Positions 6,811-38,585 of a DNA stretch of 64,000 nt are shown here, in pieces. Under the pieces are notes generated by a model. The model was given only the letters and a program-made list of their open reading frames with translations. It was not told where the DNA came from and made no database searches. A program made the translations under genes and the position numbers. The first letter of the stretch is position 1; every line of letters starts with the position of its first letter. Origin of the DNA: an uncultured Isosphaeraceae bacterium (GTDB lineage Bacteria; Planctomycetota; GCA-002687715). The DNA lies in contig CAZDQF010000012.1 in NCBI GenBank assembly GCA_964507445.1, positions 65,989 to 129,988 on the forward strand, read 5' to 3'.

Positions 6811-6828
6811 TCGACCCTGTCCTCGCGC

Positions 6829-9789: not shown

Positions 9790-9867
9790 GTGGAGGCCCT
9801 TTCCTCGTCCAAACGCGCCCCGGTAGCATGACAGATGGTGGGCCGCGAGCGCAAGACAGCTATCGGA

Positions 9868-11085: not shown

Positions 11086-11095
11086 TCTGGTCTTC

Positions 11096-11947: not shown

Positions 11948-12002
11948 GCCTCCTCTTGTATCGGACCGACGGTCAAGAAGGGAGGGTGGAACCCGTGACG
12001 GG

Positions 12003-12557: not shown

Positions 12558-12592
12558 CATGGGGATGGTATACGGGGTCGCGTCCGCATCTT

Positions 12593-13996: not shown

Positions 13997-14017
13997 GGGA
14001 GGACCTTAACCGGTGGG

Positions 14018-15580: not shown

Positions 15581-15603
15581 GGTCAGAACGGTACACTGCG
15601 GCC

Positions 15604-17088: not shown

Positions 17089-17130
17089 CGCGGGCAACCC
17101 AGGCGGCGTCCTTCGCCCGGGCCTGATGGG

Positions 17131-17158
17131 GTGCCCCCCTCGATGGGGAGGGGGGCAC
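17131..17158. terminator. GC-rich stem-loop between convergent genes (putative bidirectional terminator)
   Basis: gtgcccccctc / gaggggggcac is a perfect 11-bp inverted repeat with a 6-nt loop, sitting in the 76-bp gap between the beta-helix gene stop (17088) and the giant gene stop (17164). Confidence 0.5.
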
Positions 17159-17163
17159 GGGTG

Positions 17164-23100: not shown

Positions 23101-26100
23101 TCCCACCAGGCCGCTGTCGGTGGTGCAGACGATGGCATGCCAGCCTGGTGACAGGTTGACGGAGGAGGTCACCCCGTCGACGCCGTTGGCGATGGCGGCG
23201 TCCCGTGGCCTGAAGTCCGAGGTGGTCCCCGGGTCGAACAGACGCCACTTCAGGGGCGCCGCGTCGGACATGGTGATGTCGTACGTGCCCGCTGTCGTCA
23301 CACTGAATTCGAACGTCCTGATGACGCGGTTGGTGGGCCACGAGGCGATGGTGTAGGGCGTCCCCATGGCGAGCGTCACGTTGTAGGAACGCATGATGCT
23401 GGCGCCGTCCGTGCCGCTGACCCGGCTGGCGATGCCGTTGGCCTGATTGACGGGGCCGTTGCGGCCGTTGGCGATGACGAAGTCGGTGATGGCTCCCGAG
23501 GATCGGGAATGGACGCCGCCGATGCCGATGTCCCAGTCGGAGGTGGAGGCGCAGCCGACGGCGTTCCAGCGATTGAAGTCCAGAGTGAAGCTGAACGGGC
23601 TGCAAGGGTTGACGACGGATACCGGTACGGCGGTTGGAAGGGTGGTGTTCTGGAGCGCCGTCGGGCTGTAATGGACGGTGCCGTTCCAGACCCGGGGCGA
23701 GTACGTGCTTCCGAAGGGGTAGGTCTTTCCGGCTCCCTCCAGGATCTGGAGATTGGAATCCGCGGCATAGACCGCGCCGGCGGTCGTGCCGTTGGTGTAC
23801 TTGATGCCCGAGCCGTTGGTGACGGTGACGTAGAAGCCCTGGGTCGTGCCCGCCGTCATCGGCGTCATCAGGCTGATGGGGAGCGGCGTCGGGGCATTCA
23901 GGCCGTTGGAGACCACGCCGGCGGCCGACCCGATCAGAGTCCAGGCCGAGGAGTTGGTCTCGTTGCCGACGAAGGTGCCGCCTCCGGTGACCCCGTAGAC
24001 CTCGAGGTCCCACGTCCCCACGTCGAGGTTGACGTCGAAGCCGCAGATGCTGACGTCGTTGATGGCCACCAGATCGAACATGTTGCCGGCCTGGCCGTTG
24101 TTGCTCGCGAAGGTCGTGGTCAGTCCCGTTGCCTGGGAGAAGTTGTTGATGATGAAGGGCAAGGACGCCGAGGTCCCGCCCCCGGGGAGCGGGCTCTCCA
24201 CCAACACCGCCGCCGTGCCCGTCGTGGTCAGGAAGTTGTCCCCCACCAGAGCCTTGAGGGTGTTGCCGTCCTCGAAGGTGGTGGTCAGGGTGGTGCCGTC
24301 GAACTTGACCGTGGAGTCGGCGACGAAGCCGGACCCGCTGACCGTGATCTGCAACGGATCGAAGGTGTTCTCGTACCAGGTGATCGCGGAAGTGCTGAGG
24401 GACAGGGAGAGGATGTCGAGGTCGCCGTCGCCGTTGAGGTCGCTGGCGAACACGTTGTTGGCGTAGTCCGCCGTGGTGGAGACGACGTTCTCGGGCCCGA
24501 AAGAGCCGCCGAGGTTCTCGTACCAGGCGATCTTGTCGTCGAACCGGGACGCCGACAGCACGTCGCGGTCGCCGTCGCCGTCCAGATCGGCGGCGAACAC
24601 GCTCACGGCGCCGTCGGCGCTGCTGCTGATCACCTGCTGGGTCCCGAAAGACCCGCCGAGGTTTTCGTACCAGGCGATCTTGTCGTCGCCTTGAGACGCG
24701 GAGAGGACATCCACGTCGCCGTCGCCGTCGAGATCGGCGGCGAAGACGCTACGGGCGCCCTGCGCGTTGGTGGTGATCGTCTGCGGGGTACCGAATCCCC
24801 AGGGGAAGTTCTCGTACCAGGTGATGCGGTTGTCGCCCTGGGACGCCGACAGCACGTCGGCGTCACCGTCGCCGTCAAGGTCCGCGGTGAAGACGTCCAT
24901 GGCGCCCATCGCGTTGCTGGTGATCAAGTGCTGGGGCCCGAAGGAGCCGCCGATGTTCTCGTACCAGGCGATCTTGTTGTCATCGCGGGACGCGGAGAGG
25001 ACGTCGAGGTCGCCATCCCCATCGAGGTCCGCGGCGTGAACGGCGTAGGCGTAGGCGAGGTTGCTGGTGATCACCTGCGGTGCGCCGAAGGACCCGCCGC
25101 CGAGGTTCTCGTACCAGGCGATCTGGTTGCTGGGCAGGGAGACCGAGAGGACGTCGAGGTCGCCGTCGTTGTCGAGGTCGCCCGTGTGCACGTCAACGAA
25201 ATGACTGTAGGTACCAGCGTGGACCACGACGTTTTGCGGGGCTCCGAAGGATCCGCCGAGGTTCTCGCACCACCGGACGGCGTTGACCGTGGTGCCGAGG
25301 ATGTCGTTGTCGCCGTCACCGTCGAGGTCGGCGGCGTGGACGTCCCATGCGAAGCCAAAGCCCGTCGCGATCACCTGCTCCGGGCCGATTCCACCGGCCG
25401 GAGTGACGACGGGGCTGCTGTCCGGGGTGACCGAGGTCAGCGTCGGGACCGGGTTCACGAAGGTGACCGTGAACGGCGTCGAGGCCGACGTCCCGCCGCC
25501 TGGCGACGGGTTGAAGACCTCCACGTCGTGGGTCCCTGCCGTGGCGACGTAGCTCGCCGGGATGGTGCATCGCAAGAGGCCGGGCAGCACCAGGGTGGTG
25601 GGCTGGCTCAGGCCATTCCATCGGATCACCGAGCTGGTGTTGAAGCCGGAGCCGAGGAGGTCGAGGCTGAAGGACCCGCTGCCGGCGGTGGTGGAGGACG
25701 GGAACATGCCGGTGACCGAGGGCGTCGGGTGACCGATGAGTAGGGTCTGGCTCGGGGAGAATCCGCCCCCCGGGGCCGGGTTCTCGATGCTGATGGCAGC
25801 GGTTCCGACGGTGGCCGTGAGGGATGAGGGTACGGATGCCGTGAGCTGGGACGTGCTGACGAAGGTGGTGGCCAGAGGGGTGTTGAGAGTCGTGCCGCTC
25901 CAGTGGACCATCGCGCCCGAGACGAAGTTGGAGCCGTTGGCGGTCAGGGTCAGGGTGCCGCCGCCGACGGTCGCTGACGTGGGGGCGATCGACGTCAAGG
26001 TGGGTAACGGGTTCGATCCAGGGATGCTGTCCACGCGGACCTGGAACGACAGGCTGCTGGCGGGCGCACCGAAGGGGTGGGTGACGGCGATGGCGTGCCA

Positions 26101-29004
26101 TCCGGCGTCGAGGGTGACGGTGTGGGTCGTGCCGTTCGCAACTCCGTTGATCACGAAGTCGCTGCTGGGTCGCCACTGGGAGTCGTTCCCCGGTGCATGG
26201 AGCTTCCAGTACAGGGCGCTGCTTCCCGTGAGCGTGATGTCATAGCTGCCAGCGGTGGTGGCGTTGAAGTCGAACATCCGGATCACGAAAGAAGCCGGCC
26301 AGCTGGAGGAGAGGGTCGTGCCGACGGGGAGACCATCGATGTCCGCCCGCTGCAAGCGCGCCGCCGCGGCGCCCGCGTTCAGGACGGCGACTCCGTTCTG
26401 CGGGTTGATGGCTCCGAGGTGACCGTTGGTGATGACGTAGTCCGTCAGGCCGAAGGCGTAGCCGGACTGGGCCGAGCCGACGCCGATGTTCCAGTCCGAG
26501 GTCGAGGCCACGCCCACGGCGTTCCAACGATTCGCGGCGGTGACCGTCGTGAAGGGGTGGCAGGGACCGCCGATGTTGCTGACGGAGATGCCGCTCAGGG
26601 GGACATTGCTGGCCACCGGGCAGACGTTGCTCATGACGTAGGTCGTGTCGGGTGACGGTCCGTTGTTCCGGTAGAGAAGGAGCGCGTGGTATCCCGTGCT
26701 CGACACCGTCACGGTCCAGGTCGTGCCGCTCGCCGTCCCGCCGCCGATGTAGTCGTTCTTGCGGATCCAGTTGGCGTCGGACTGGGGTGCGTAGAGGCGC
26801 CAGGAGATGGAGGAGTCTCCCGTCACGGTGACGGCGTAGGTGCCGGTGGCGGCGAGGTTGATCTCTCGAAGCTCCAGGATCTCGCCGGGGCTGAACGTGT
26901 CGACCCCGTTGAATCCGGTCGCGCCGAGCGCCGTGGCGCCCTCAGCCTCCACCGTCGCGTCGGCGGACCCGGCGGTGCCGATGACCAGCCCGGTGGTGGG
27001 GCTGATGGCCCCGTGGTGTCCGTTGGCCAGAACGAAGTCCGCGCCCGTGGTCGTCGACGTGGCGCTTCCCATCACCAGGTTCCAGTTGGAGGACGACGAG
27101 ACGCCCACCACGTTCCACCGACCGGCCACCGGGTTGACACCGATCTCCCGGCAAGGCGTGGCGTTGGTGATCACGGCCGGGCTCTCGTTGGCGATCAGGT
27201 TGATGGAAGACCCGTTGCACACGGTGACCCCGAAAGTGGACGGGGTCACGGCCGCCGTGCCGTTGTCCTTGTAGACGACGATGACGTGCCAGCCCGCGTC
27301 GAAGAGCAGGTGGTTGCTGGCGCCGTCGCCCACGGTTCCGCTGGCGATCAGCGTGGTCGAGTTCCGTGCCCGCCAGCTCTCATCCGAACCGGGCTTGTAC
27401 AGGCGCCAGCTCAGGTCCGGGCTGCCGGAGACGGCGATCTCGTAGTAGCCGCCCAGGGACTCGAACTCGAACATCTGCATGACGTCCGTGGACCCCCAGG
27501 TGTTGGTGTCCATGGTCCCCACGGTGAGGGTCTGGGCCTCGAGGAGATCGGCGCGAGCGGTGTCGGTGCCGACGTACTGATCGAACTCCCCGGACGTCGG
27601 GGCGACGGTGCCCAGGTGCCCGTTGGCGATGATGAAGTCGCAGCTCCCGCCGCTCAGGGTCGAGCTGGCGTCTTCATGGATGAGGTCCCAGTCGCTGGCG
27701 GACGTGATGCCGAAACCGACCCAGCTGTTGGCTGCCGGTGTGCCGTTGAACACCTGGAAGTCGCAGGTCACCGGGTCTGAGTTTCCCGTGGTGGAGCTGG
27801 CGAGGTACTGGTTCGAGCAGCCGACGGTGTTGGAGATGGCGATCTGCAATCCGGGTGTCAGGATGCTCTGGGCGTGGTTGTTCAAATAGCCTGCCAATGC
27901 ACACCCACCGTGCGTGTGTATCCCGATCACCTCCCCGGTCGCCTCATTGATCATGGGAGCCCCAGAGGCGCCGCCAGCGGAATCAACAAGGTGCTCAATG
28001 TAATCGTTGACGTAAGCGGTAAGGGGTCCCGTCGCCGTCTGCTGAGCGCACCAGTACGCAGGGTCATTCGCATCAACTCCAAAGCCGGTGAGGCGGAGTA
28101 CTGGGTTGTTTGGCGGAGGCAGGATTAGAGGCAAGGTCGTCGCGAGGGTGAAGTGCGCGCCCTGGTTCCCGACCGCCGTCTGCCCGGTGGAATTCGGGTG
28201 GAGGCGCCCCACGAGCCAATCGGCACCAATGCCGTTGTTGAGGGACCAGATGGAAGACTGGTCCACCGGGTACTGATCGGCCACGGGAGGATGCTGAAAC
28301 TGAGCCGGTGGACTATTACCGGGGTTGGACACTGGAAGGGACAACGGAACGTTGAACTCCGCGATGACCACCGCCCCGGGCGGTACCTGGTTGGGATTCA
28401 AAGGGCCGGGTGCATAGCAATGCCCGGCGCTGACGATGGTGTTGGTGTCGCTGATGAGGAATCCGGTGCAAGCTGCAGGTCCGGTACCCAAGCTGGATAC
28501 GAGGCGGCAGACGCGCGGGTCACTGCTGGGGACTCGATCGTCGATACCCGCGCAAATCGAAGCTAATGGGTCATTGCCGTGATGCTGCCCGACCAACCCG
28601 AGTGCACCCACATAGAGATCACGGATGACCACCTGCCCGACGGATCCCGCAGCCAGCTCCACGGAGAGCTCCAGACGGTCGCCGTTGAACCACGCGGTGT
28701 GGTTGCGCCAGAGCTTGAGGTTGGAGAGGGTGAGGCGCTGCTGCTCGCCGTCGCGGGGATTGGTGACGACGATGGCGTCGTCCGGGTGTTGCAGGTCCGC
28801 CGTGTCGAAGAGGAGCTGTAGGGAGGGCGCCCCGGGTACGGTCACCGTAGTCTTCCACACCGTCTTGGACCCGGCCCCGCTGTTGGAAAGGATGCCGGAG
28901 GCGAGGGGATAGGGGATCATGGTCCCCATAGGCGCCGGTGATTGAGAGGCGGCCGAGGTCACAAGGCAGACAAGGACGGCAGCAAGGCGTGACTGGCGCA
29001 TCAT
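17164..29004 (-). CDS. Giant (3946 aa) secreted multidomain protein: N-terminal trypsin-like S1 serine protease, pre-peptidase-like beta-sandwich repeats, about 20 IPT/TIG domains, two FG-GAP/VCBS beta-propeller arrays, conserved C-terminal domain
   Basis: Signal peptide MMRQSRLAAVLVCLVTSAASQ with RBS GGAG 7 nt upstream. Protease motifs SAGHCY and GGASGAP. Repeated W(R/K)LY/F...PG.D..WR modules. IPT/TIG repeats (P.LTS..P.SA..GG..FTLT.NGS.F..GS.V.WNG..L.TTFVS...L.A.VP). FG-GAP blades (VFAADLDGDGD.DVLSAS..D.KIAWYENLGGGSFG). The frame stays open for 11.8 kb. Confidence 0.85.
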   Translation of the reverse strand: MMRQSRLAAVLVCLVTSAASQSPAPMGTMIPYPLASGILSNSGAGSKTVWKTTVTVPGAPSLQLLFDTADLQHPDDAIVVTNPRDGEQQRLTLSNLKLWRNHTAWFNGDRLELSVELAAGSVGQVVIRDLYVGALGLVGQHHGNDPLASICAGIDDRVPSSDPRVCRLVSSLGTGPAACTGFLISDTNTIVSAGHCYAPGPLNPNQVPPGAVVIAEFNVPLSLPVSNPGNSPPAQFQHPPVADQYPVDQSSIWSLNNGIGADWLVGRLHPNSTGQTAVGNQGAHFTLATTLPLILPPPNNPVLRLTGFGVDANDPAYWCAQQTATGPLTAYVNDYIEHLVDSAGGASGAPMINEATGEVIGIHTHGGCALAGYLNNHAQSILTPGLQIAISNTVGCSNQYLASSTTGNSDPVTCDFQVFNGTPAANSWVGFGITSASDWDLIHEDASSTLSGGSCDFIIANGHLGTVAPTSGEFDQYVGTDTARADLLEAQTLTVGTMDTNTWGSTDVMQMFEFESLGGYYEIAVSGSPDLSWRLYKPGSDESWRARNSTTLIASGTVGDGASNHLLFDAGWHVIVVYKDNGTAAVTPSTFGVTVCNGSSINLIANESPAVITNATPCREIGVNPVAGRWNVVGVSSSSNWNLVMGSATSTTTGADFVLANGHHGAISPTTGLVIGTAGSADATVEAEGATALGATGFNGVDTFSPGEILELREINLAATGTYAVTVTGDSSISWRLYAPQSDANWIRKNDYIGGGTASGTTWTVTVSSTGYHALLLYRNNGPSPDTTYVMSNVCPVASNVPLSGISVSNIGGPCHPFTTVTAANRWNAVGVASTSDWNIGVGSAQSGYAFGLTDYVITNGHLGAINPQNGVAVLNAGAAAARLQRADIDGLPVGTTLSSSWPASFVIRMFDFNATTAGSYDITLTGSSALYWKLHAPGNDSQWRPSSDFVINGVANGTTHTVTLDAGWHAIAVTHPFGAPASSLSFQVRVDSIPGSNPLPTLTSIAPTSATVGGGTLTLTANGSNFVSGAMVHWSGTTLNTPLATTFVSTSQLTASVPSSLTATVGTAAISIENPAPGGGFSPSQTLLIGHPTPSVTGMFPSSTTAGSGSFSLDLLGSGFNTSSVIRWNGLSQPTTLVLPGLLRCTIPASYVATAGTHDVEVFNPSPGGGTSASTPFTVTFVNPVPTLTSVTPDSSPVVTPAGGIGPEQVIATGFGFAWDVHAADLDGDGDNDILGTTVNAVRWCENLGGSFGAPQNVVVHAGTYSHFVDVHTGDLDNDGDLDVLSVSLPSNQIAWYENLGGGSFGAPQVITSNLAYAYAVHAADLDGDGDLDVLSASRDDNKIAWYENIGGSFGPQHLITSNAMGAMDVFTADLDGDGDADVLSASQGDNRITWYENFPWGFGTPQTITTNAQGARSVFAADLDGDGDVDVLSASQGDDKIAWYENLGGSFGTQQVISSSADGAVSVFAADLDGDGDRDVLSASRFDDKIAWYENLGGSFGPENVVSTTADYANNVFASDLNGDGDLDILSLSLSTSAITWYENTFDPLQITVSGSGFVADSTVKFDGTTLTTTFEDGNTLKALVGDNFLTTTGTAAVLVESPLPGGGTSASLPFIINNFSQATGLTTTFASNNGQAGNMFDLVAINDVSICGFDVNLDVGTWDLEVYGVTGGGTFVGNETNSSAWTLIGSAAGVVSNGLNAPTPLPISLMTPMTAGTTQGFYVTVTNGSGIKYTNGTTAGAVYAADSNLQILEGAGKTYPFGSTYSPRVWNGTVHYSPTALQNTTLPTAVPVSVVNPCSPFSFTLDFNRWNAVGCASTSDWDIGIGGVHSRSSGAITDFVIANGRNGPVNQANGIASRVSGTDGASIMRSYNVTLAMGTPYTIASWPTNRVIRTFEFSVTTAGTYDITMSDAAPLKWRLFDPGTTSDFRPRDAAIANGVDGVTSSVNLSPGWHAIVCTTDSGLVGTPFTFSMLVEPQPQNPVPALTSISPAATTAGAGGFTLTANGSGFASNATIQWNGAPLSTTFVSASQLTAAVPASLVATFGTASVSVQNPTPGGGISTTQTFTIGHPVPTITGLTPQSTLVGGGAFTLAVIGTGFSSSSVIQWDGAPQPTTYVTSSELTCAIPASFVASAGYAAVTVENPAPGGGVSTANTFTVNNLDPLVVSTTPSTAAAGGPAFLLTVNGVNFVPTSVISFDGLNLATTFVNAGTLTATVPASSIAGIGTYTVGVVNPAPTIGSGYSSVAFNTVNPVPTVTSTSPSSAVIGGLGSFGPQQVLSPYTNGLDQREPRSVYAEDLDGDGDLDVLAAFLHTIGWYENLGDGNFGTMQAVTTYSIPSTLQRGTSVFAIDLDGDNDADVLSASFDDDKIAWYENLGGGTFGPQQVITTLAAGAWCVHAADVDGDGDHDVLSASPLDNKIAWYENTGGGTFGAQQVITTSAGSARSVFAIDVDGDGDTDVLHASQDRIAWYENTGGGSFGAEQWLSGPAGTPTGVWGGTSVFATDLDGDGDRDVLSASITDDKIAWYENMGGGSFGPQQVVSASADSATSVFAADLDGDGDTDVLSASGASGGSSPEQITWYENLGGGSFGPPSAISMDVESPECVFAADLDGDCDMDVLSASLAFGGFSTDPDHKVAWYENGGGAFPITVNGSEFVPSSVISFDGISLATTFVDANTVAATVPCGALTAAGTVIVGVTNPSPGGGFGSTTFTVENPAPAPTSLDPPSVLTEGPTFLLNVNGSAFVNGSSTVRWNGTPLLTAFVSATQLRATVPSPLIALPGTAAVDVETSGPGGGISAPLTFDITNPAPTISSVTPDTALLGSGPLLVTVNGSNFNSTSVVRFGNGGGNALPTTFIDANTVTVTLTNSQGWFNFANITSIGVENPAPGGGSAFTTFTVENPTPTLTSLGTTSVSVGTPGFWLTVMGSQFISGDSTVRWNGTALTTQFISANELRGYATSSLLASAGVVSVDVETTGPGGGVSSSLPFTVVGPTPTTSLGTTFAANSGQAGNMFDLVAINDVSICGFDVNLDPGTWDLEVYTVTGGGTFIGKENDPSAWTLAGAATGVVSNGGNVPTPLPIGLMVSLAAGSTQGFYVTVTNGAAMNDLVGTSPGAVFAADANLQILEGAGKTYPFGATFSPRVWSGAVHYRTTALAHLQGSSAWTISEPCSPFTFTAQAGGWVAVGLQSTSDWDLGVGSAFSQSPGAVSEFVVANGDNGTVSPLHGVASRVGGTGSARIKSRSGHPLTVGTPSLPQNWNAYEVIRLFQFDAPVAGNYNITMSNAAPLKWRLFDPGTNADFRPRGSAIASGVDGVTSTVSLSPGLHAIVCTTDTGPVSAATYFGFTMLVEQVPNPAPSTTAMTPSSTPAGGPSFGLTVHGSGFALGSIVHWNGTPLSTSFMNSSTLAATVPAALIASPGVATVTVQSPAPGGGTSNGQTFTITNPVPAIGSLNPPSAVVNDPSFTLTVQGTGFTTNSVVRWNGAPQPTTYVSSSQLACGIPASLVTSAGYAAVTVENPAPGGGTSAAATFTINNPNPVVTSTTPATTFAGGPAFLLTVDGTNFVQGAVISFDGLNLATTFVNANTLTATVPASSITALSTFSVIVTNPAPTVGSGVSSIAFNTVIPAPTLTSTAPTSAIAGDVTFTMNVNGTGFFDGATMVRWNGTAIPTTYVSNTQVQGLVSAALIGQPGTANIDVENIDVTGMGFGGISGALPFPVLAPVISSLQPAGGPIMNPASPPHPVTIFGANFHPGTVAYADEFPLSTTFISSTELQCQIPGTHPGVQQRGGVAIAVENAHTVPSNPKAHSVGGPASNLGIGIRHPLGPLPGETYIAHFENGMPNMPFLCVVDVSNPTPIYPWPNPTGDFVLSVLPYPAPSIIPLVDGIGTFAPPSGATMDPNGHFDLGPFTLPNPPLGIQITVQGAFINPLAPLGYSVTWGKFPDRL

Positions 29005-29048
29005 TCACTCCACGATATGCGATTGGGATGGTGGCTCTGAACGCGTTG

Positions 29049-29077
29049 ATTTGAATGAAAAAGGCGGATTGCGTCAA
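29049..29077 (-). promoter_or_regulatory. Candidate sigma-70-type promoter of the giant gene (-35 TTGACG, 17-bp spacer, -10 TCAAAT)
   Basis: Read on the minus strand in a locally AT-richer stretch about 45-75 nt upstream of the ATG at 29004. A sequence-pattern match only. Confidence 0.25.
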
Positions 29078-29254
29078 TAGCCCATCACAGTCCAGTCCTG
29101 GATTGCCCCATTGCATTGGGATCAGTCCTTCCGGCTGTCCCTGGACTCGCACACCATGCGTGATTGCGCGACCCATTGGCGTCACGGACTGGTCCCGCCC
29201 AGGAGTCTGTAGCTCGAGAGTCGCAGTGCTCCGGGAGTTGCGACTCACCCCGGG

Positions 29255-29330
29255 GAGCGCGGAGGGGTTCAAGGTGGGCCGAGACAACGAGCTCAAGAAG
29301 AGCGGCGGGGGGGCGTGTGCGCATGAAGAG
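29255..29330 (+). pseudogene. Remnant of the 3' end of a parallel beta-helix gene (duplicate of 17020-17088)
   Basis: The nucleotide run gcggaggggttcaaggtgggccgagacaacgagctcaagaag, encoding SAEGFKVGRDNELKK, matches the C-terminus of the 15604-17088 protein (AEGFKVGRDNELKKNRKGRVRVK). Only about 25 codons remain and they then diverge. It lies just 3' of the second giant gene, the same relative position as the intact copy. Confidence 0.55.
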
Positions 29331-29362
29331 ACCGCGTCACTCCACAGGGAGTGACGCGGTCT
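29329..29362. terminator. Perfect 15-bp stem / 4-nt loop hairpin downstream of giant gene 2 (putative terminator)
   Basis: agaccgcgtcactcc-acag-ggagtgacgcggtct. Same relative position as the 17131-17158 hairpin. Confidence 0.5.
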
Positions 29363-29392
29363 GTTTCACGCTGCCTGGTGGCTCAGAGAGTC

Positions 29393-32300
29393 TTAGAGCT
29401 GGTCAGGGTAGCGGGGCCATTGGAGGGTGAAGCCCACCGGTGAGCTGGGGTTGATGTAGGCACCCTGCACCGTGATGCTCCAGCCGAGGGCCGGGTTGGG
29501 GAGGGTGAGACCCGGGAGGGTGAACTCACCGGCGGCGTCGTAGACGATGCCGGGGATCGGAGGTCCGAAGACACCGATGCCGTCGATCACCACGAACCAG
29601 TCCCCCGGGACCGCCGGCTGGGAGCCGCGGACCGACAGCACGAAGTCTGCCGCGGGGCTCGGCCACGGATAGATGGGGGTCGGGTTGGTGAGGTCCGCCA
29701 GCAGCAGCAGCGGGAAGCCCGGCAGGCCGCTCTCGCAGCGGGCCCCGTAGGACTCGCCCGGCAGCGGCGCCAGCGGGTTGCGGGTGACGGTGCCGGCGTT
29801 GCTGCCGAGACCGCCGACCACGCACGCCACCGCGTTGGACGGCACCGTGTGGGCGTTCTCCACCGCGATGGCGAGGCCGCCGCGGCGCAGGGCGCCGAGC
29901 ACCGTCGGGCCCACCTGGCAGCTCAGGGTGGAGCTGTTCAGGTAGGTGGTGGGCAGGGCGTAGCCGTCGGCGTAGGCGACGGTGCCCGGATGGAAGTTGG
30001 TCCCCGTGATGGTGATGGTCTGAGCCGGTGATGCCGCGGTCAGGATGGGGATCGAGGACGGCGTGATGTTGATGATCGAAGGCGCAAGCACCGGGAACGA
30101 CAGGGCGCCGGAGGCGCCGCCGCCAGGACCGGCGGTCTCCACGTCCACGTTGGCGGTGCCCGGCGTCCCGATGAGGGCCGCGGACACCGTGGCCTGCAGC
30201 TGGTTCGAGGAGACGAAGCTCGTGGGCAACGGGCCGCCGTTCCAACGCACCTGGGAGTCACCGTTGATGAAGTCGGAGCCGTTCACGTTCATGGTGAACG
30301 TGGCGTCGCCGGCGACGGCGAACGTGGGCGCCACCGAAACGATGGACGGTGTCGGGTTCTCAACGGTGAAGTTGGTGGAGCCCAGACCGCCGCCGGGCGC
30401 CGGGTTCTCCACGCTGACCAGCACCGATCCGGCGGTGGACAGGGATGCGCCGGGCACCGTGGCGGTGACCGCGTTGGCGCTCACCAGGGTGGTGGCCAGA
30501 CCCAGCCCGTTGAATCGGATCACCGAGCTGCTGTTGAAGTTGGCGCCGTTCACCGTGATGGCCAGGGGGCCGCTGCCCACCACCGCTGAGGCGGGGCTGA
30601 CGGAGGCCACCGTGGGCACCGGGTTGTTGACCGTGAAGGTGCTGATGGGAGTGATGCCGCCACCGGGTGACGGGTTGAACACCTGCACGTTCCGGGTCCC
30701 GGCGTTGGTGATGAAGCCGGCCGGGATGGTGCAGCGCACCAGCGTCGACGACACCAGGGTGGTGGACTGGCTCAGACCGTTCCACCGGATCACTGAACTG
30801 CCGTTGAAGTTGGAGCCGCTGACGTTGAGGGTGAAGGCTCCGCTCCCTGCGGTGGCCGACGACGGGCTCAGGGAGCTCAGGGTCGGCGCCGGGTTGTTGA
30901 TGGTGAAGGTCTGGCTGCCGGAGATGCCGCCGCCGGGGGCGGGGGTCTCCACGTCCACGGACGCGGTGCCGGCGCTGGCGATGAGCGCGGAGGACACCGA
31001 GGCCGTGAGCTGGCCGGAGTTCACGTAGGTGGTCGTCAGGTTGCTGCCGTTCCAGCGGATGCTGGAGCCGGAGATGAAGTTCGATCCGTTCACGGTCAGG
31101 GTGAAGGAGGAACCACCAGCGAAGGCCGAGCTCGGCGACAGGGACGAGGTGGACGGCGCCGGGTTGGGCGTCGGCTCCACGGTCACGGAGAAGGTCGGTT
31201 GTGACGACGGGTCCGCGGTGGCGTGGTAGACGCTGATGGCGTGCCACCCGGTGGTGGAGAAGGTCCGGGTCAGCGTGGTGCCGCCCGCCGCGCCCAAGGC
31301 CACGTAGTCGTTGTCCGATCGCCAACTGGCGTCCGTGCCCGGTTCATGGAGTCGCCACGACAGGTTCGGGGCGTTGTCCAGGGTGATGTCGTAGCTGCCC
31401 GGGCTCGGGATGTCGAACTCGAACATGCGGATCACCCGGTTGGCCGGCCATCCGGCGATGGTGTACGGCGTCCCCACGTTCAGGGTCACCGTGTAGGAGC
31501 GCATGAGGCGAGCGCTGTCCGCTCCGGAGAAGCGAGAGGAGACGCCGTTGCTGGGGGTGACGGTGCCGTTATGTCCGTTGGCGATGACGAAGTCGGTGAC
31601 GCCGCCACCGGACCTCGAGTAGCCCGTGCCCACACCGATGTCCCAGTCGGAGGCCGAGGCGACACCGACCGCGTTCCACCTGCCGGACTCCGGCGAGAAC
31701 GTGAAGGGGGCGCAGGGACCCGCAGCCGTGGCCACACCGAACCCGGACAGGGTGGTGCTGGTGGAGACGGAACAGATGTTGGACATCACCGTGGTGGTGT
31801 CGGTGGAGGGCCCGTTGTTGCGATACAGCAGCAGGGCGTGGTACCCGGTGCTGGAAACCGTCACGTTGACGGTGCCCCCGCCGCCGTTGCCGGAGGCGAT
31901 GGAACTCGCTTCCGGGACCCAGTTGGCGTCCGATTGAGGCGCGTAGAAGCGCCACGAGATCGAGGAATCCCCGACCACCGTGATGGCGTAGGTGCCCGTG
32001 GAGGTGAGGTTCACCTCGCGCAGCTCCAGGATCTCCCCTGCGGCGAACGCGTCCACCGAGTTGGACCCGGTTGCGCTGAGGGACAGGGCGTCCTGGTGCT
32101 CCATGGTCCCGTCTGAGGAGCCGGAGAACCGGTTCACCTGACCCCATATGGGAGAGATGGTGCCGAGGTGCCCGTTGGCGAGGGCGAAGTCGGCGCCGCC
32201 CGTGTAGGAGGTCGCGCTGCCCAGCACCAGGTCCCAGTCGGAGGGAGAGGAGATGCCGACCACGTTCCATCGTCCCGCCACCGCCGTTATCCGGAAGTCC

Positions 32301-34129
32301 TGGCACGGGTCGGTGATGGTCGTCGGAACGTTGTCCGTGAGCAGGATTGACCCCGTCGCCGAGCACACCGTGACCGCGAGGCTGGTGGGGCTGACCGCCG
32401 CGACGCCGTCGTCCTTGTAGACCACGATGACGTGCCATCCGGTGTTCAGGGTCGCGCCCTGGTATGTGGAAAGGCCGACGGTCCCGCTGGCCTCCAGGGT
32501 CGTGGAGGTGCGGCTGCGCCATCCGGCGTTCGACCCCGGTGCGTACAGCCGCCAGTTGAGGTCGCTGCTGCCGCTGACGGTGATGTCGAAGCTGCCCGCG
32601 GCCGTGACCTCAAACTCGAACATCTGCATCACGTCGGTGGACCCCCAGGAGCTGGTCTCCGTCTCGCCGACCGCGAAGGTCTGGGCTTCGAGGAGGTCTG
32701 CGTAGGCGTTGGAGCCGCCGGAGAAGCGGTTCAGCTCGCCGGAGGTGGGCGCGACGGTTCCGAGGCGCCCGTTGGCGATGATGAAGTCGCAACTGCCGCC
32801 ACCGAGGACCGACGACGCATCTTCGTGGATCAGGTCCCAATCGCTGGCCGACGTGATACCGAAGCCGACCCAGCTGTTGGCCGCAGGTGTGCCGTTGAAC
32901 ACCTGGAAATCGCAGGTCACCGGGTCGGCGGCCCCGCTCTGCGAGCTGGCCAGGAACTGGGTCGAGCACCCGACGGTCTGTGCGATGGCCGTTTGCAGCG
33001 CTGGCCGGAGAATGCTGGTCCCGCTGTTGGAGCTGGTGGAGCTGGTGCCGCAGCCGCCGTTGGTGTGGATGCCGATGGCCAGGCCCGTCGCGGTGTCGAT
33101 GATGGGGCTCCCGGAGTTGCCGCCCTCGGTATCCACCCGGTGGCGGATCTGGTCGCCTACGTACCCGAAGTGCGTGCCGGTGTCCGTCTGTTGATCGTAG
33201 GCGCGGGTAGCGTTGTTGCTGTCATCCCCGTGTCCGGTGACGCGGAGGTTGGGCACCACGAACGGCGGGATGTACGCCGGCAAGGTCGTGGCCAGGCTAA
33301 AGAATGAACCCTGGTTGCCGAAAGCCGTGGTGCCTGTGGAGTTGGGGTGCAGGCGCGCGACGGCCCAGTCGTCGCCGCCTCCCGGCAGGCCCAGATTTTC
33401 GAACTGGATGGTGGATTGATCCACCGGGTACTGATCTGCGACGGGTGGGTGCTGGGCGCAGCCTGCGGCGTTGGATGCCGGGGTGTTGAATTCGGCGATG
33501 ACAAACCAGTCCGGCAGCGGGTCGGCGCAGTGGCCGGCGCCGAGGATGGTGTTGGTCGAGCTGATCAACCAACCGGTGCAGGAGCCGCACGACGCGGCCG
33601 TCATGACGAGTCGGCAGACGCGTGCGTCATTGCTCAGGGTCCGCTCGTCGCCGCTGCCGCAGATGGTGTTGGACGTGCCCAGGATGGGCTGGATCCCCGC
33701 GTAGACGGTGCGGATGACGATCTGGCCGGTGGAGCCTGGCGCCAGCTCGATGGCCACGTCCACACGGTCTCCGTTGAACCACGCGGTGTGGTTCCGCCAC
33801 TGCTTCAGGCGCAGGTGATCGAGCCGCTGGGTCTCCCCGTCTCGCGGGTTGGTCAGGATGACGGCGTCGTCAGGACCGATCTCGACGGTGTCGAAGAGCA
33901 ACTGGAGCGAATGGGCCCCGGTGACCTGGATGGGTGCGCTCCACGCTCGCCAGGGGATGTCCCTGCCGTTGCTCACCAAGCCCGAAGAGGCGGGGTAGTT
34001 GACCGCGGTGGCGATAGGTGCAGAGGGTTGGGCCACGACCGAAGGCATGGTCGCGGCGACGAGGAGGAGCGTCAGCGCTCCGAGTGCGGTGACTCGGCCG
34101 ACAGGCCGGACACTGATGGAGAGGGACAT
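29393..34129 (-). CDS. Large (about 1578 aa) secreted trypsin-like S1 protease with pre-peptidase-like repeats, about 6 IPT/TIG domains and a conserved C-terminal domain (paralog of the 17164-29004 protein)
   Basis: Internal Met MSLSISVRPVGRVTALGALTLLLVAATMPSVVAQ is a signal peptide, preceded by RBS AGGAAG. The ATG at 34129 was checked. The protease region aligns with gene 1 (SLQLLFDT...NPRDGE.QRL...WRNHTAWFNGDR; AGHC; GNSGSPI). The C-terminal 170 aa is shared with gene 1. Confidence 0.85.
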   Translation of the reverse strand: MSLSISVRPVGRVTALGALTLLLVAATMPSVVAQPSAPIATAVNYPASSGLVSNGRDIPWRAWSAPIQVTGAHSLQLLFDTVEIGPDDAVILTNPRDGETQRLDHLRLKQWRNHTAWFNGDRVDVAIELAPGSTGQIVIRTVYAGIQPILGTSNTICGSGDERTLSNDARVCRLVMTAASCGSCTGWLISSTNTILGAGHCADPLPDWFVIAEFNTPASNAAGCAQHPPVADQYPVDQSTIQFENLGLPGGGDDWAVARLHPNSTGTTAFGNQGSFFSLATTLPAYIPPFVVPNLRVTGHGDDSNNATRAYDQQTDTGTHFGYVGDQIRHRVDTEGGNSGSPIIDTATGLAIGIHTNGGCGTSSTSSNSGTSILRPALQTAIAQTVGCSTQFLASSQSGAADPVTCDFQVFNGTPAANSWVGFGITSASDWDLIHEDASSVLGGGSCDFIIANGRLGTVAPTSGELNRFSGGSNAYADLLEAQTFAVGETETSSWGSTDVMQMFEFEVTAAGSFDITVSGSSDLNWRLYAPGSNAGWRSRTSTTLEASGTVGLSTYQGATLNTGWHVIVVYKDDGVAAVSPTSLAVTVCSATGSILLTDNVPTTITDPCQDFRITAVAGRWNVVGISSPSDWDLVLGSATSYTGGADFALANGHLGTISPIWGQVNRFSGSSDGTMEHQDALSLSATGSNSVDAFAAGEILELREVNLTSTGTYAITVVGDSSISWRFYAPQSDANWVPEASSIASGNGGGGTVNVTVSSTGYHALLLYRNNGPSTDTTTVMSNICSVSTSTTLSGFGVATAAGPCAPFTFSPESGRWNAVGVASASDWDIGVGTGYSRSGGGVTDFVIANGHNGTVTPSNGVSSRFSGADSARLMRSYTVTLNVGTPYTIAGWPANRVIRMFEFDIPSPGSYDITLDNAPNLSWRLHEPGTDASWRSDNDYVALGAAGGTTLTRTFSTTGWHAISVYHATADPSSQPTFSVTVEPTPNPAPSTSSLSPSSAFAGGSSFTLTVNGSNFISGSSIRWNGSNLTTTYVNSGQLTASVSSALIASAGTASVDVETPAPGGGISGSQTFTINNPAPTLSSLSPSSATAGSGAFTLNVSGSNFNGSSVIRWNGLSQSTTLVSSTLVRCTIPAGFITNAGTRNVQVFNPSPGGGITPISTFTVNNPVPTVASVSPASAVVGSGPLAITVNGANFNSSSVIRFNGLGLATTLVSANAVTATVPGASLSTAGSVLVSVENPAPGGGLGSTNFTVENPTPSIVSVAPTFAVAGDATFTMNVNGSDFINGDSQVRWNGGPLPTSFVSSNQLQATVSAALIGTPGTANVDVETAGPGGGASGALSFPVLAPSIINITPSSIPILTAASPAQTITITGTNFHPGTVAYADGYALPTTYLNSSTLSCQVGPTVLGALRRGGLAIAVENAHTVPSNAVACVVGGLGSNAGTVTRNPLAPLPGESYGARCESGLPGFPLLLLADLTNPTPIYPWPSPAADFVLSVRGSQPAVPGDWFVVIDGIGVFGPPIPGIVYDAAGEFTLPGLTLPNPALGWSITVQGAYINPSSPVGFTLQWPRYPDQL

Positions 34130-34392
34130 TACTTCCTGGTTCCTTTGGAATGATGAGGGTCCACTGGGGTGAAACGTCGAGCGGGGGGCGGGAGACCCCC
34201 CAAGTTGTAGTGGATTCACCCGCCGCTGGGGTTTCGTGCGACAAAAAAAAGGGGATTCTGCGATTTGCAGTCGACGAAGGGGCGTCCGGAGCTCCGAACT
34301 GAGTCCCTCGGCCGGCCACGCGGCCTTCGCAAGCGCCTCTCCCGCAGTTACTTGTGCCTGCGCTCCGAGCACTCTGCGGTCGGCGCGAGGCT

Positions 34393-35661
34393 CTATCGCA
34401 GGCTGAGGCTCAGGGCGCCGCCCTGGCCGCCGCCGATGCAGAGGGTCGCGAGGGCTCTCGAGCCGTGGCGGCGTCTTAGTTCCAGGAGGCTGGTCAGCAC
34501 CAGGCGGGCGCCGGTCATCCCCACGGGGTGTCCCATGGCGATGGCGCCCCCGTTGACGTTGAGGCGTTCGGTGGGGATGGTCCCCAGCGGATCGTCTCGC
34601 GAGAGGACGTCCCTGGCGTAATCCCCGTCCTCCGCGGCTCGGAGGCAGGCCAGGACCTGAGCGGCGAAGGCCTCGTTGATCTCGATCAGGTCATAGTCGG
34701 GGAGGGGGGCGTCCGGGTGAAGGCGGCTCATGGCGTGCACCGGTCCCAAGCCCATGCGCCGGGGATCGCACCCCGCGTACGCCCATTCGTCGAGGAAGCC
34801 GAGGGGGGTGAGCCCCATGGTCTCCGCCCACCGTTCGTCCCCTACCAGCAAGGCCACCGCCCCGTCGGTGATCTGGCTGGAGTTGCCGGCGGTCACGGAG
34901 CCGTGGCGACGATCGAACACGGTGCGTAGCCTGGCCAGACGTTCAGGAGTGGAGTCGTCCCGGACTCCTTCGTCATCTCGGAGGACGCCTCCTTGATGGA
35001 CGACATCGAAGGTCTCCTCCCGGAGCTTGTCCCGACCAGCGAGGGCCTTGCGGTGGCTCTCGGCGGCGAATCCGTCTTGCGCGCTGCGTGAGATCGCCCA
35101 TTCACGGGCGAGGAGCTCCGCCGTGTCTCCCATGCCCATGCCCACTACCGGGTCGGTCAGCCCGCGGATGAGCGCGGCCTCCGGGCTGATCATGGAAGGG
35201 CGGAAGCCCACCAGGGTTCGCATCCGGGCCCACACGGAGCGGGCTCGTTGCAGTCGTTTGAACCAGGCCACCGCTCGGGGACGGAACAGGAGCGGGTAGT
35301 TGCTCATGCTCTCCGTCGCGACAGCGGCGAACAGGTCTCCGCGGCCGGCGCGTAGTCGGAGTGCGCACTGGGTGATGGCCTCGAAGCCGGAGGCGCAATT
35401 GCGGTGCACCGTCATGGCCTCGACGGATTCGGGGACGCCGGCACGAAGAGCGATCACCCTGCCGATGTTAGGGGCGTCAGGGCCCTGTCCGACGTTGCCG
35501 CAGACCACCGTGTCCAGCCGTGACGGGTCGACGTCTGTGCGCAGCAGCAGCTCGCGGAGGGCCAGGGTGCCGAGGTCGTCGGCTCCCAGGCGGCGCAGGG
35601 CCCCGTCCATCTTCCCGAGTGGGGTGCGGATTCCGGCCAGGATGCAGAGTCGTTGGCTCAC
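34393..35661 (-). CDS. fadA: Acetyl-CoA C-acyltransferase (3-ketoacyl-CoA thiolase)
   Basis: Thiolase signatures (ILAGIRTPLGK; VHRNCASGFEA; C-terminal NVNGGAIAMGHPVGMTGARL; CIGGGQGGA). GTG start at 35661 overlaps the fadB stop (GTGA). Confidence 0.88.
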   Translation of the reverse strand: MSQRLCILAGIRTPLGKMDGALRRLGADDLGTLALRELLLRTDVDPSRLDTVVCGNVGQGPDAPNIGRVIALRAGVPESVEAMTVHRNCASGFEAITQCALRLRAGRGDLFAAVATESMSNYPLLFRPRAVAWFKRLQRARSVWARMRTLVGFRPSMISPEAALIRGLTDPVVGMGMGDTAELLAREWAISRSAQDGFAAESHRKALAGRDKLREETFDVVHQGGVLRDDEGVRDDSTPERLARLRTVFDRRHGSVTAGNSSQITDGAVALLVGDERWAETMGLTPLGFLDEWAYAGCDPRRMGLGPVHAMSRLHPDAPLPDYDLIEINEAFAAQVLACLRAAEDGDYARDVLSRDDPLGTIPTERLNVNGGAIAMGHPVGMTGARLVLTSLLELRRRHGSRALATLCIGGGQGGALSLSLR

Positions 35662-37652
35662 GAGGACTCCTCCGCCCAGTGAAGCAGGCCGCCCTTCTCC
35701 GGTGGGAACCCGATCCCGAAGACGGTGCCGATGTCCACGTCTTCGGGGCACAGGACGAGGCCCTCCGCCAGGATGGCCTGCGCTTCCGTCACCATCCGAC
35801 CGACCAGCCGCGCGGACAGGTCCGGGTCCGCCGCCGCGTTCCGCCGCGAGGGTCGCCGCTTGCCGTAGGTGTAGAAGCCGCGACCGGACTTCTTGCCCAG
35901 GTGCCCCTTCTCGACCCGCTGTTCGATGCTCGGGTGAAGCTCGAACGGATTCCCGTCCCGTGTCGCCGCGTGTCGTCCGGCGTCGACGATGACGTCGAGG
36001 CCGACCTCGTCCATGAGCCGGAAGGGCCCCATGGGTAGCCCGAAAGCCCTGATGGATGCGTCTACGGACTCCCGGTCCACGCCTCCGTCGCAGATGCGGC
36101 AGGCCTCCAAGAAGTACGGCGCCAGGAGCCGGTTCACCAGGAACCCCGGACCGTCGCCGACGACGATGGGGGTCTTGCCAAGCGCCTTCGCGGCGGCCAG
36201 TCCACGGGCCAGGGTGTGGTCGGAGGTCTTCGCCCCACGGACGATCTCCAGCAGCGGCATCAACCCCGGGGGGTTGAAGAAATGCAGGCCGAGGAACCGG
36301 CCCGGGACCCCCGTGGCGTCCGCCAGCTCATCAACGGAGAGGCTCGAGGTGTTGGTGGCGATCATCGTCCGGTCGGAGGTCTCGGCCACCACCTGGGTGA
36401 GGATGTCGTGTTTGAGCTCCATGCGCTCCGGCGCCGCCTCGATGACGCAGTCCATGGAGCGGAGGCCGTCGATCTTCGTGGACACCGTGAAGCGGGTGCG
36501 GTGGAGGTGTGCCTCCGCTTTGCTCATGTCGCCACGCCGGACGCGCCGCTTCAGTTCGTTCTCGACGCGTCTCAATCCGGCGGCGAGGGCGTCCGGTTGG
36601 GGGTCGATGAGGCGCACGCCGAGCCCCTTGCCGACGGCCAGGGCCGCGATCCCGGCTCCCATGGTGCCGCCGCCGATGACCGCCAGCTCGCGGGGGCCCT
36701 CCGTGTCCCGACCGGCGCCGTAGACCGGTGGCCGGTTCCCGTCCCGGGTGAGGCGGAACAGCCGCAGCAGGTTCTCATGGGCGGAGGTCTGGAGGAGCTT
36801 CAGCACCTCCTGCCGTTCCGACTCCAGGGAGTCGGACGTGGGAGCGGTGACGGAACTCGCCATGACCTCGAGAGCGGCCATGGGCGCCGGAAACCGTCCC
36901 TTGGTCTGCTTCAGGATCGCCTTGCGAGCGAAGCGCTGGGTCAAGGCCCGTCCGGGAGGGGTGTGGTCCAGGAACCGCTGGATCATGCCCTTGCGAGGGC
37001 GCCGGCCGTGTCCTCCCCGACCCCGCTCTTCGATCAAGTCGAGGGCGACAGGGACCAGTTGCTGGCTCGCCACGACGTCGTCCACCAGGCCGAGTCTGCG
37101 GGCCTTGCGAGCGTTGACGGTCTTGCCCGCGGTGACCAGGGGGATGGCCGCCCCCAGGCCGATCAGGCGAGGCAGCCGCGTGCTGCCGCCCCAGGCGGGG
37201 AGGATGCCCAGCTTGGTCTCGGGCAGGCCGAGTTGAGTCTTGGGGTCCTCCGTCGCCAGGCGGGCGTCGCACGCGAGGGCCAGCTCCAGGCCGCCGCCGA
37301 CGCAGACCCCGTCAACGAGCGCGACGGTCACTTGTGGTAGGTGTGCGATGCGTTCGAACAGGTCCTGACCACGGCGGATCATGACCTCGGCCTCTGCTGG
37401 GGACTCCAGGGCGGCCATGGCGTCCACGTCGGCGCCGGCGCAGAACACGCCCGGGACCTCGCTGCGGAACAGGACGCCTCGGAGGTCCTTGTTGGCGACC
37501 AGCTCCTGGAGCAGCTCCTCCAGCTGCTCCACCACACCTTCGCCGATGACGAACGGAGCGTCGTCCTCGGTCCGGAAGGTGACGGCGACGACGCCGTCCT
37601 CTATCTGGTCAGCCCTGATCATCCCCATGTCGCCCGCGGATATCCTAATCAA
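35658..37652 (-). CDS. fadB: Fatty acid oxidation complex alpha subunit (enoyl-CoA hydratase / 3-hydroxyacyl-CoA dehydrogenase), FadB/FadJ family
   Basis: N-terminal crotonase domain (FCAGADVD), central NAD-binding LAVIGGGTMGAGIAA, and a 3HCDH C-terminal domain. About 664 aa. Confidence 0.88.
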   Translation of the reverse strand: MIRISAGDMGMIRADQIEDGVVAVTFRTEDDAPFVIGEGVVEQLEELLQELVANKDLRGVLFRSEVPGVFCAGADVDAMAALESPAEAEVMIRRGQDLFERIAHLPQVTVALVDGVCVGGGLELALACDARLATEDPKTQLGLPETKLGILPAWGGSTRLPRLIGLGAAIPLVTAGKTVNARKARRLGLVDDVVASQQLVPVALDLIEERGRGGHGRRPRKGMIQRFLDHTPPGRALTQRFARKAILKQTKGRFPAPMAALEVMASSVTAPTSDSLESERQEVLKLLQTSAHENLLRLFRLTRDGNRPPVYGAGRDTEGPRELAVIGGGTMGAGIAALAVGKGLGVRLIDPQPDALAAGLRRVENELKRRVRRGDMSKAEAHLHRTRFTVSTKIDGLRSMDCVIEAAPERMELKHDILTQVVAETSDRTMIATNTSSLSVDELADATGVPGRFLGLHFFNPPGLMPLLEIVRGAKTSDHTLARGLAAAKALGKTPIVVGDGPGFLVNRLLAPYFLEACRICDGGVDRESVDASIRAFGLPMGPFRLMDEVGLDVIVDAGRHAATRDGNPFELHPSIEQRVEKGHLGKKSGRGFYTYGKRRPSRRNAAADPDLSARLVGRMVTEAQAILAEGLVLCPEDVDIGTVFGIGFPPEKGGLLHWAEESS

Positions 37653-37670
37653 CCCCGGGCCGCAGGGGGA

Positions 37671-38585
37671 TCAGCGAATCGAAGCCCAGCCCGGGTTGAG
37701 GTGGGGCAGCAGCTCGTCGCGGACGTTGGCGGCCGCCGCGCGACCACGCTCCGCCATCTCCGCCGCCTGGTTGAAGTCTGACCAGGGGAGGCTGTCCACG
37801 TCAGGGTGGATGATGACATCCGCGAGGGAGAGGACGTGGTCACGGAACACCGTCCCGGCGATCTCCTCCATCCTCATCATGACCCCGAGGGCGGTCTCGC
37901 AAGTCTCGAGGGGGGTCACCGCCCGGCTCACGTCTGCCGCGATGACCAGGGACGGGTTGTAGTAGCGACACTCCTGGGTTGGCAACGGAGAGAAGATGCC
38001 GATGTCCGAGAGCAGCATGCCGTCCAACTCCACCGGCGGGAAGATGCCAGGGAGCGAGGCGGATCCACGGACCGCCTTTCGGAGATTGCCCTTCTCGAGG
38101 ACCACCCGCCTGCCGCTACGAAGATCGATGGCCACGATGGTCAGGGGAATGCTGGCGTCGGCGATGTCGGCGTCGGGCAGCACGTTGTCGGCGACGTCCT
38201 TGAGCAGCTGGGATGCCAGCAGGCCCTTCTTGGTCACCACGCGGTTGAACATCCGGTTGGCGCGGAGGTACTCGCGGATCTGGTTGAACCAGCCGACCCC
38301 GCCGTCCTTGCCGTCTCCGTTCTGGTTCTGACCTCGGCTGGCGCCCATCATGGACTTCTGGTGCGTCTGGAATCGGTCGCTGGTCACGTAGTCGATGACC
38401 CGCTTGGAGATCACGTCGGCGTCGGGCTCGAAGGCATAGGCGGCGCCAACGATGCTGCCGATGCTGACGCCGACGATGCGGTCCGGTCGGATGGGGCTCT
38501 GCTCCAGCACCTCGAGGACGCCAAGGTGAGCGAGCCCGCGGGCGCCGCCGCCACCGAGAGCGACCACCACCGGACCACGGCTCAT
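37671..38585 (-). CDS. Patatin-like phospholipase family protein
   Basis: Oxyanion hole GGGGARG, nucleophile elbow GVSIGS (GxSxG), and a downstream catalytic Asp region. ATG overlaps the stop of the upstream ligase gene (ATGA). Confidence 0.82.
   Translation of the reverse strand: MSRGPVVVALGGGGARGLAHLGVLEVLEQSPIRPDRIVGVSIGSIVGAAYAFEPDADVISKRVIDYVTSDRFQTHQKSMMGASRGQNQNGDGKDGGVGWFNQIREYLRANRMFNRVVTKKGLLASQLLKDVADNVLPDADIADASIPLTIVAIDLRSGRRVVLEKGNLRKAVRGSASLPGIFPPVELDGMLLSDIGIFSPLPTQECRYYNPSLVIAADVSRAVTPLETCETALGVMMRMEEIAGTVFRDHVLSLADVIIHPDVDSLPWSDFNQAAEMAERGRAAAANVRDELLPHLNPGWASIR

Follow-up and report, generated by a model that had tools for sequence, protein, structure and literature searches.

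A copy of a beta-helix gene end that is far younger than the two tandem protease paralogs beside it in an uncultured Isosphaeraceae bacterium

A 64,000-nucleotide stretch of DNA from an uncultured Isosphaeraceae bacterium (contig CAZDQF010000012.1 of assembly GCA_964507445.1, positions 65,989 to 129,988; referred to here as the window, from whose first letter all coordinates are counted) carries two adjacent genes for related proteases, gene 1 and gene 2, and the spacer between them holds a fragment of a right-handed parallel beta-helix gene, which is itself intact on the other side of gene 1. The fragment and the end of the intact gene form a direct repeat of 78 nt, of which the left copy, T (17015–17092), comprises the last 24 codons and the stop codon of the beta-helix gene plus 4 nt, and the right copy is denoted T'. 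In a first-pass annotation this arrangement was explained by a tandem duplication of a unit made up of the beta-helix 3' end, a hairpin and the protease 3' end. Our analysis revealed that the separation of gene 1 and gene 2 long predates T', and that scar and paralogs do not stem from one event, because the synonymous sites of the two genes are saturated while the core of the repeat is near-identical, and because the spacers beside the two copies are unrelated. The description of same-strand tandem paralogs accompanied by a collinear beta-helix fragment holds, whereas a single event that duplicated the whole unit and produced gene 2 does not, the ages differing by orders of magnitude and only 78 nt having been recently repeated.

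The direct repeat and its edges

The 45-mer at 17015–17059 is found again at 29257–29301 with a single mismatch (44/45), a match which was not reached in any of 100 shuffles. Global alignment of 17015–17092 with 29257–29336 gave 70 identical columns out of 80, with two 1-nt gaps, i.e. an identity of 88% over the whole block and of 98% in its first 45 nt, termed here the core. The edges of the repeat are abrupt, with identity starting at 17015/29257 and stopping at 17092/29336, where there is a short CGCG microhomology. To the left of the block the alignment is no better than that of shuffled sequence (914 of 1000 shuffles reach the observed score), and the same is true of the spacers to its right, 17093–17163 and 29337–29392, for which 479 of 1000 shuffles do so. 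The region upstream of gene 1 resembles neither that of gene 2 nor the beta-helix gene, so that the continuous homology expected of a duplicated unit is missing from both the spacers and the upstream regions. An alignment of the longer intervals 17000–17700 and 29240–29930, proposed in the first-pass annotation as a check, contains the 78-nt block at 88% and coding sequence at ~65–71%, separated by spacers that behave like shuffled sequence. The remnant of the beta-helix 3' end reported there is thus real, although its limits (29255–29330 against 17020–17088) were off by a few bases.

T and T' are 12,242 bp apart and enclose a hairpin (hairpin A), gene 1 and the 252-nt region upstream of it. 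The distance from the repeat block to the protease stop codon is similar on the two sides, at 71 nt for T and gene 1 and 56 nt for T' and gene 2. Gene 1 is the sole unit bracketed in this way: flanking direct repeats were found neither around gene 2, nor around the pair of genes, nor around the protease genes of relatives, and a search for a third copy at the border of gene 2 and the neighbouring thiolase gene returned nothing above shuffles. Nor did T-like remnants rise above shuffles beside the protease orthologues in five public contigs (L004, L005, L006, L014 and L011; L-numbers denote public contigs and P-numbers proteins from public gene calls). A degenerate DNA pattern of the T codons gave 0 matches in metagenome_contigs, a search in which the source contig itself was also missed.

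Read in frame, T' encodes SAEGFKVGRDNELKK and then runs into a frameshift, and the stop codon of the beta-helix gene has changed to AGA. The 3' part of T' has acquired 7 substitutions and two 1-nt insertions in addition to losing the stop codon, and the changes cluster there, affecting 1 of 45 core positions against 8 of the last 33 nt (Fisher p = 0.004). An open reading frame (ORF) of 99 aa with an ATG start (29055–29354, plus strand) crosses T', reads through it in frame and occupies most of the spacer between gene 1 and gene 2. It was considered as a possible gene and rejected, because its G+C content at third codon positions (GC3) upstream of T' is 0.63, against 0.87–0.90 in real genes, its sequence is oddly rich in Cys and Pro, and it has no Pfam match.

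Each copy of the repeat is followed by a hairpin. The perfect 15-bp hairpin that the first-pass annotation placed next to T' (hairpin B) was confirmed; it has a 4-nt loop, can be extended to ~20 bp, and has folding z-scores of -5.8 on the plus strand and -8.5 on the minus strand. The supposedly equivalent hairpin A does exist, as an 11-bp perfect G+C stem with a 6-nt loop and z-scores of -1.3 and -3.2, but it has no sequence in common with hairpin B and is not its homologue. Neither passes a scan for terminators with a T-tract; hairpin A is probably a bidirectional terminator and hairpin B probably the terminator of gene 2 and of a former beta-helix end. At its right end the repeat overlaps the 5' arm of hairpin B by 4 nt, and the last bases of T' form part of the extended stem, which fits T' and hairpin B together having been where the beta-helix gene originally ended.

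The window is 100% identical to contigs assembled independently from Joint Genome Institute (JGI) sample 3300009008 and from the SUTE22-1 samples of the European Nucleotide Archive (ENA), and the arrangement is therefore not an assembly artefact. All public contigs with gene 1 and gene 2 show one identical arrangement. A further independently assembled contig, L003 (ENA ERZ23498795 scaffold_4260), ends at window position 29325, inside T' and hairpin B, which could be an effect of coverage, an effect of the hairpin or a structural variant at the repeat.

Age of the paralogs and of the repeat

Gene 1 and gene 2 are collinear paralogs which share their N-terminal and C-terminal parts, as had been claimed in the first-pass annotation: residues 12–1198 of gene 2 match residues 3–1218 of gene 1 with 55% identity, and residues 794–1578 match 3160–3946, the last 787 aa of gene 1, with 52%. 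Their four-fold synonymous sites are 44–50% identical against 40–41% expected from composition, i.e. they are saturated, and between gene 2 and P0002, its orthologue in another organism, the figure is 50% against 40% expected. If T' were of the same age as the paralogs and had decayed neutrally, the probability of finding 44 of 45 core positions identical would be about 1e-12 to 1e-14. Averaged over sliding windows, gene 1 and gene 2 are 58% identical in the N-terminal and 52% in the C-terminal part, and gene 1 and P0002 are 55.5% and 54.4% identical, respectively, while gene 2 and P0002 are 68.6% identical to each other. Gene 1 is thus no closer to the gene next to it than to the orthologue of that gene elsewhere, and the paralogs therefore parted no later than the speciation that separated gene 2 from P0002.

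The beta-helix gene itself provides a second measure. The 3' ends of its orthologues in L007 and L008 match the core at only ~75% (~11 of 45 positions differ, counted by eye), and thus T' is either a recent copy of this genome's own T or has been kept identical to it. Against that divergence, the 44/45 identity of the core amounts to hardly any decay, contrary to the earlier description of T' as a decayed fragment.

A first neighbour-joining tree, which placed gene 1 cleanly outside a clade of gene 2 and P0002–P0004, was not retained for the full protein, as bootstraps back this topology for the C-terminal domain only. Over 247 C-terminal columns 286 of 300 bootstraps unite gene 2 with P0002–P0004 and leave gene 1 outside; over 1063 N-terminal columns gene 1 sits on a long branch in an unresolved clade with gene 2, P0002 and P0003. 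The paralogs are consequently not mutual closest relatives in the C-terminal part, where one duplication would have made them so, and the N-terminal part does not decide the matter. Since the topology is firm only in the C-terminal domain and the family is mosaic, the age argument rests on synonymous saturation and on gene 1 being as distant from gene 2 as from the orthologues of gene 2.

The mosaic character of the family is seen along gene 1, where residues 3281–3340 (about 18985–19164) are 78% identical in amino acids and 80% in nucleotides to P0002 but 42% and 53% to gene 2, and where residues 408–447 (about 27664–27783) are 95% identical in amino acids to gene 2. This pattern of identity suggests an exchange of modules among paralogs and orthologues.

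High-identity patches in the coding sequence, namely 40 nt that match exactly in gene 1 and gene 2 (17594–17633 and 29835–29874) in the motif AIAVENAHTVPSN and a 107-nt block (27737/32886) with 98/107 positions identical (92%), were examined as candidates for gene conversion. They were ruled out as such, because near-equal conservation in P0002 and P0003, from other organisms (P0002 is identical at 49/57 nt around the first of them), indicates conserved motifs and strong codon bias (GC3 0.87–0.90) rather than recent conversion. T' is the only near-identical patch that is not explicable by coding constraint.

These observations bear on one alternative in particular, according to which a unit of beta-helix 3' end, terminator and protease was duplicated in tandem in the distant past, its non-coding parts then decayed, and short-patch conversion from T has since kept the core of T' intact. 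Such a history would explain the collinearity of T and T' with the 3' ends of both genes at similar distances from the stop codons; it would place mismatches at the 3' edge of the block, as is seen, if only the interior were converted; and it would suit a family as mosaic and recombination-like as this one, in which a 40-residue stretch of gene 1 is 95% identical to gene 2. The presence of a protease, P0006, at the same general site in L014 also means that residence there could be old. We regard this alternative as unlikely. It needs the beta-helix and protease genes to have been adjacent before the speciation of gene 2 and P0002, yet L007, L011 and L008 lack this adjacency and the orthologues of gene 2 sit elsewhere. 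Identity is perfect right up to the left edge of the repeat, where no flanking homology could start conversion, and no coding patch has been recently converted, the best of them being equally conserved in P0002. Finally, a 45-nt island would have to persist while synonymous sites around it went to saturation.

A variable site and its possible history

The interval between the thiolase operon on one side and the beta-helix/PMT_2 pair on the other is a variable hot spot, because its cargo differs between relatives, being empty in one, a beta-helix gene only in another, and a helicase, protease, scramblase and BlaR/BlaI set in a third. In L007 (thiolase ~77% and beta-helix 46% identical), the beta-helix and thiolase genes lie next to each other in convergent orientation, with no protease in the interval (3757–3877), although at 46% beta-helix identity this contig is too distant to reveal the exact empty site. 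In L011 and L012 (thiolase 80%), PMT_2 comes immediately after the thiolase gene (6775–6823), with neither a beta-helix gene nor a protease. L014 (thiolase 69%) has the thiolase gene, a DEAD helicase, one protease (P0006), a scramblase and BlaR/BlaI over 6178–16178, and L008 has PMT_2, beta-helix and BlaI/BlaR genes over 5547–8694. The gene 2 orthologues P0002 (68%), P0003 (64%) and P0008 (46%) are solitary, in unrelated contexts and without a T-like remnant. The two-protease arrangement was seen only in this population, and none was found among related genomes in the collections searched; the proposed synteny comparison shows a variable site, with the tandem pair absent from all the relatives compared. 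A beta-helix profile search recovered only L007 from genome_contigs and one distant match (26% identity) from metagenome_contigs.

The history that we favour, and to which we would give an even chance, is that gene 2 was already in place when gene 1 was put beside it, in an event that made a second copy of 78 nt of the target. The two genes are ancient paralogs within a family of ~1500-aa secreted S1-type proteases. In this history the beta-helix gene would first have ended at what is now T', convergent with gene 2 across hairpin B. Gene 1, together with hairpin A and the 252 nt upstream of the gene, would then have been inserted as a unit, in the same orientation as gene 2, between the beta-helix gene and gene 2. 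The event may have been a single-crossover integration (Campbell-type or att-like) of a circular intermediate bearing the 78-nt stretch, or a template switch during replication or repair. Afterwards T would have stayed in frame, maintained as the C-terminus of the beta-helix protein, and T', freed from coding constraint, would have gained its frameshift, the loss of its stop and a G-run cluster of changes. The repeat with its sharp edges, the difference in age and the varying synteny are observed, whereas the direction of the event, in which gene 1 joined gene 2, and the mechanism behind it are what we infer.

Several points weigh against an insertion of this kind. No integrase, transposase or other recombinase was found between the two repeat copies or in the larger ORFs of the window that were scanned with Pfam, and a target duplication of 78 bp is far longer than those that transposases make. 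Among the public contigs carrying these genes there is no empty-site, excised or gene-1-only variant, and even the nearest relatives available have diverged too far for the event to be dated. The concentration of T/T' mismatches in the last 33 nt could instead reflect conversion or a constraint on the core.

The sharpness of both edges, with just 78 nt repeated, can also be explained if gene 1 and gene 2 were already adjacent and a break in their spacer was repaired by copying those 78 nt off the end of the beta-helix gene, 12 kb away. The microhomology at the right edge and the lack of a recombinase nearby suit such a templated patch, in which the collinearity of the repeat with the genes would be coincidental. 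It is precisely this coincidence that makes a repair patch distinctly unlikely in our estimation, as chance has to supply both the same orientation and a position abutting the hairpin of gene 2 that mirrors the placing of T and gene 1. Nor is it a well-documented process in bacteria for an insertion of such a size to be copied from a template several kilobases distant.

Retention of T' for a function of its own is very unlikely, but would account for the single change in the 45-nt core against 8 in the adjacent 33 nt. One form this might take is that minus-strand transcripts, from gene 2 read-through or in the gene 1 leader, carry 45 nt antisense to the end of the beta-helix mRNA and so couple the expression of the neighbours; T' does lie ~250 nt upstream of the gene 1 start, beside a very stable hairpin. 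Rfam gave no match at the gathering threshold in the window (the sole permissive match in the spacer had E = 0.86), however, a scan found no promoter-like or terminator-like site, and a recent origin accounts for the identity without any function. Aligning the upstream regions of six genes of the family also yielded no conserved promoter or leader. We attach only a slight likelihood to the broader proposal that selection holds the core identical, whether as a trans-antisense element on gene 2 and gene 1 transcripts or as a cassette attachment site independent of integrase; in the cassette version, the system would load giant surface-protease genes at the beta-helix 3' end.

Whether gene 1 arrived from elsewhere can also be viewed through composition. 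The codon usage of both genes is typical for the genome, which is compatible with gene 1 having moved within the genome or come in from a close relative, and neither codon usage nor tetranucleotide composition gave any sign that gene 1 or gene 2 is foreign. The two genes have in common a tetranucleotide distance from their flanks, which we infer to reflect amino-acid composition.

The proteases, their setting and comparable systems

The layout of the locus is given in Table 1. An extracytoplasmic function (ECF) sigma factor gene on the minus strand belongs to the same part of the window as the thiolase operon, and the nearest named relatives are Planctomycetota metagenome-assembled genomes. 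The public gene call for the beta-helix protein, P0058, is 100% identical to that of the window, and its orthologues P0059 and P0060, at 49% and 46% identity, have in common the C-terminus FK[VI]GRDNE.

Table 1. Features of the protease locus in window coordinates
Feature	Position	Strand	Remarks
Lactamase_B/Rhodanese gene	12593–13996	minus	
PMT_2 glycosyltransferase gene	14018–15580	minus	divergent from the beta-helix gene
Intact right-handed parallel beta-helix gene	15640–17088	plus	482 aa in public contigs; Pfam Beta_helix 1.7e-37, NosD
Spacer, beta-helix gene to gene 1			75 nt; contains hairpin A
Hairpin A	17131–17158		between beta-helix stop and gene 1 stop; from fold
Gene 1	17164–29004	minus	3946 aa, secreted protein
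Spacer, gene 1 to gene 2	29005–29392		388 nt
Gene 1 upstream region	29005–29256		252 nt, 60–61% G+C; ends at the sharp left edge of T'
T', non-coding fragment of beta-helix 3' end	29257–29336	plus	
Hairpin B	29329–29362		30 nt from gene 2 stop; from fold
Gene 2	29393–34129	minus	1578 aa protease
Thiolase/ECH-3HCDH/patatin/AMP-binding operon	34393–40093	minus	conserved; right border of the variable site

At its N-terminus gene 1 has an S1/trypsin-like protease part; it further contains PPC-like modules, TIG/CoaZ repeats, two FG-GAP arrays (21131–22151 and 24401–25373, 147–150-nt period), two copies of a 180-aa module and, at the C-terminus, a conserved domain. FG-GAP_3 matches occur in gene 1 only, in agreement with the first-pass annotation, which described gene 2 as lacking these arrays, and the 180-aa module, to which no family could be assigned, is likewise present twice in gene 1 (aa 1625–1804 and 2999–3175, 71% identical) and not at all in gene 2. 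An internal duplication of ~4.1 kb in gene 1, with 72–78% nucleotide identity, carries this module (18213–19836 against 22329–23955). At 29393–34129 and 17164–17913, the TIG-like repeats of both proteases match the NCBIfam entry NF058597, 'choice-of-anchor Z repeating domain' (E = 2.5e-113 for gene 2), and a C-terminal domain of ~170 aa without family assignment is conserved in both. Public gene calls have the same start for gene 2, at 34129, with a signal peptide after it. The otherwise G+C-rich spacer that separates the start of gene 2 from the thiolase stop contains, at 34230–34260, a run of eight A (GACAAAAAAAAGGGG), which may be part of a terminator or promoter.

Gene 2 is a typical member, in architecture and in length, of a family of ~1500-aa secreted S1 proteases (V8-like/trypsin_2) with PPC-like and TIG/'choice-of-anchor Z' modules from Planctomycetota-like marine bacteria, most relatives being about 1470–1670 aa long. 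What gene 1 has in common with this family are its first 1200 aa and its last 790 aa; it differs in being 2.5-fold larger by virtue of its FG-GAP arrays and internal 4.1-kb duplication. An exhaustive search of a representative library clustered at 50% identity with residues 1–1200 of gene 1 found no closer relative of the gene 1 type; the best full-length match was P0003 at 53%, and the other matches were mostly to TIG repeats.

The locus is best described as a known kind of rearrangement scar at a variable site, i.e. as ordinary genome evolution, and on present evidence it opens no new biological question. It documents, for uncultured marine Planctomycetota-like bacteria, a variable insertion hot spot with a conserved fatty-acid operon on one side and a PMT_2/beta-helix pair on the other, and a 12-kb single-gene unit enclosed in an unusually long 78-nt repeat without a recombinase would be of modest mechanistic interest should an empty site or a circle be found.

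Among known systems, integrative elements insert into the end of a protein-coding gene, restore it from a fragment borne on attP, and leave direct repeats at attL and attR (PMC7192596). The locus resembles them in having one repeat copy in the intact 3' end of the target, an orphan copy across the insert and a target whose function is preserved; it differs in that neither the 12.2-kb unit nor the Pfam-scanned ORFs of the window include a tyrosine or serine recombinase, that the cargo is a single giant gene, and that no excised or empty-site form was observed. Gene conversion between a functional gene and a pseudogene fragment likewise gives a short non-functional tract that is near-identical to a selected copy, whereas here the tract is just 78 nt long, has no flanking homology, and is not matched by any recent tract in the longer homologous coding regions. 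The closest outward likeness is to a tandem segmental duplication with a junction scar, as adjacent same-strand paralogs with a fragment of the flanking gene at the expected junction are what such a duplication leaves; here, however, the paralogs are saturated and as distant from each other as from orthologues, the scar is 88% identical (98% in its core), and the spacers are unrelated. Tandem paralogs together with a gene fragment can thus mimic one duplication where dating by neutral sites gives two events of widely differing age, a caution for the reading of genomes.

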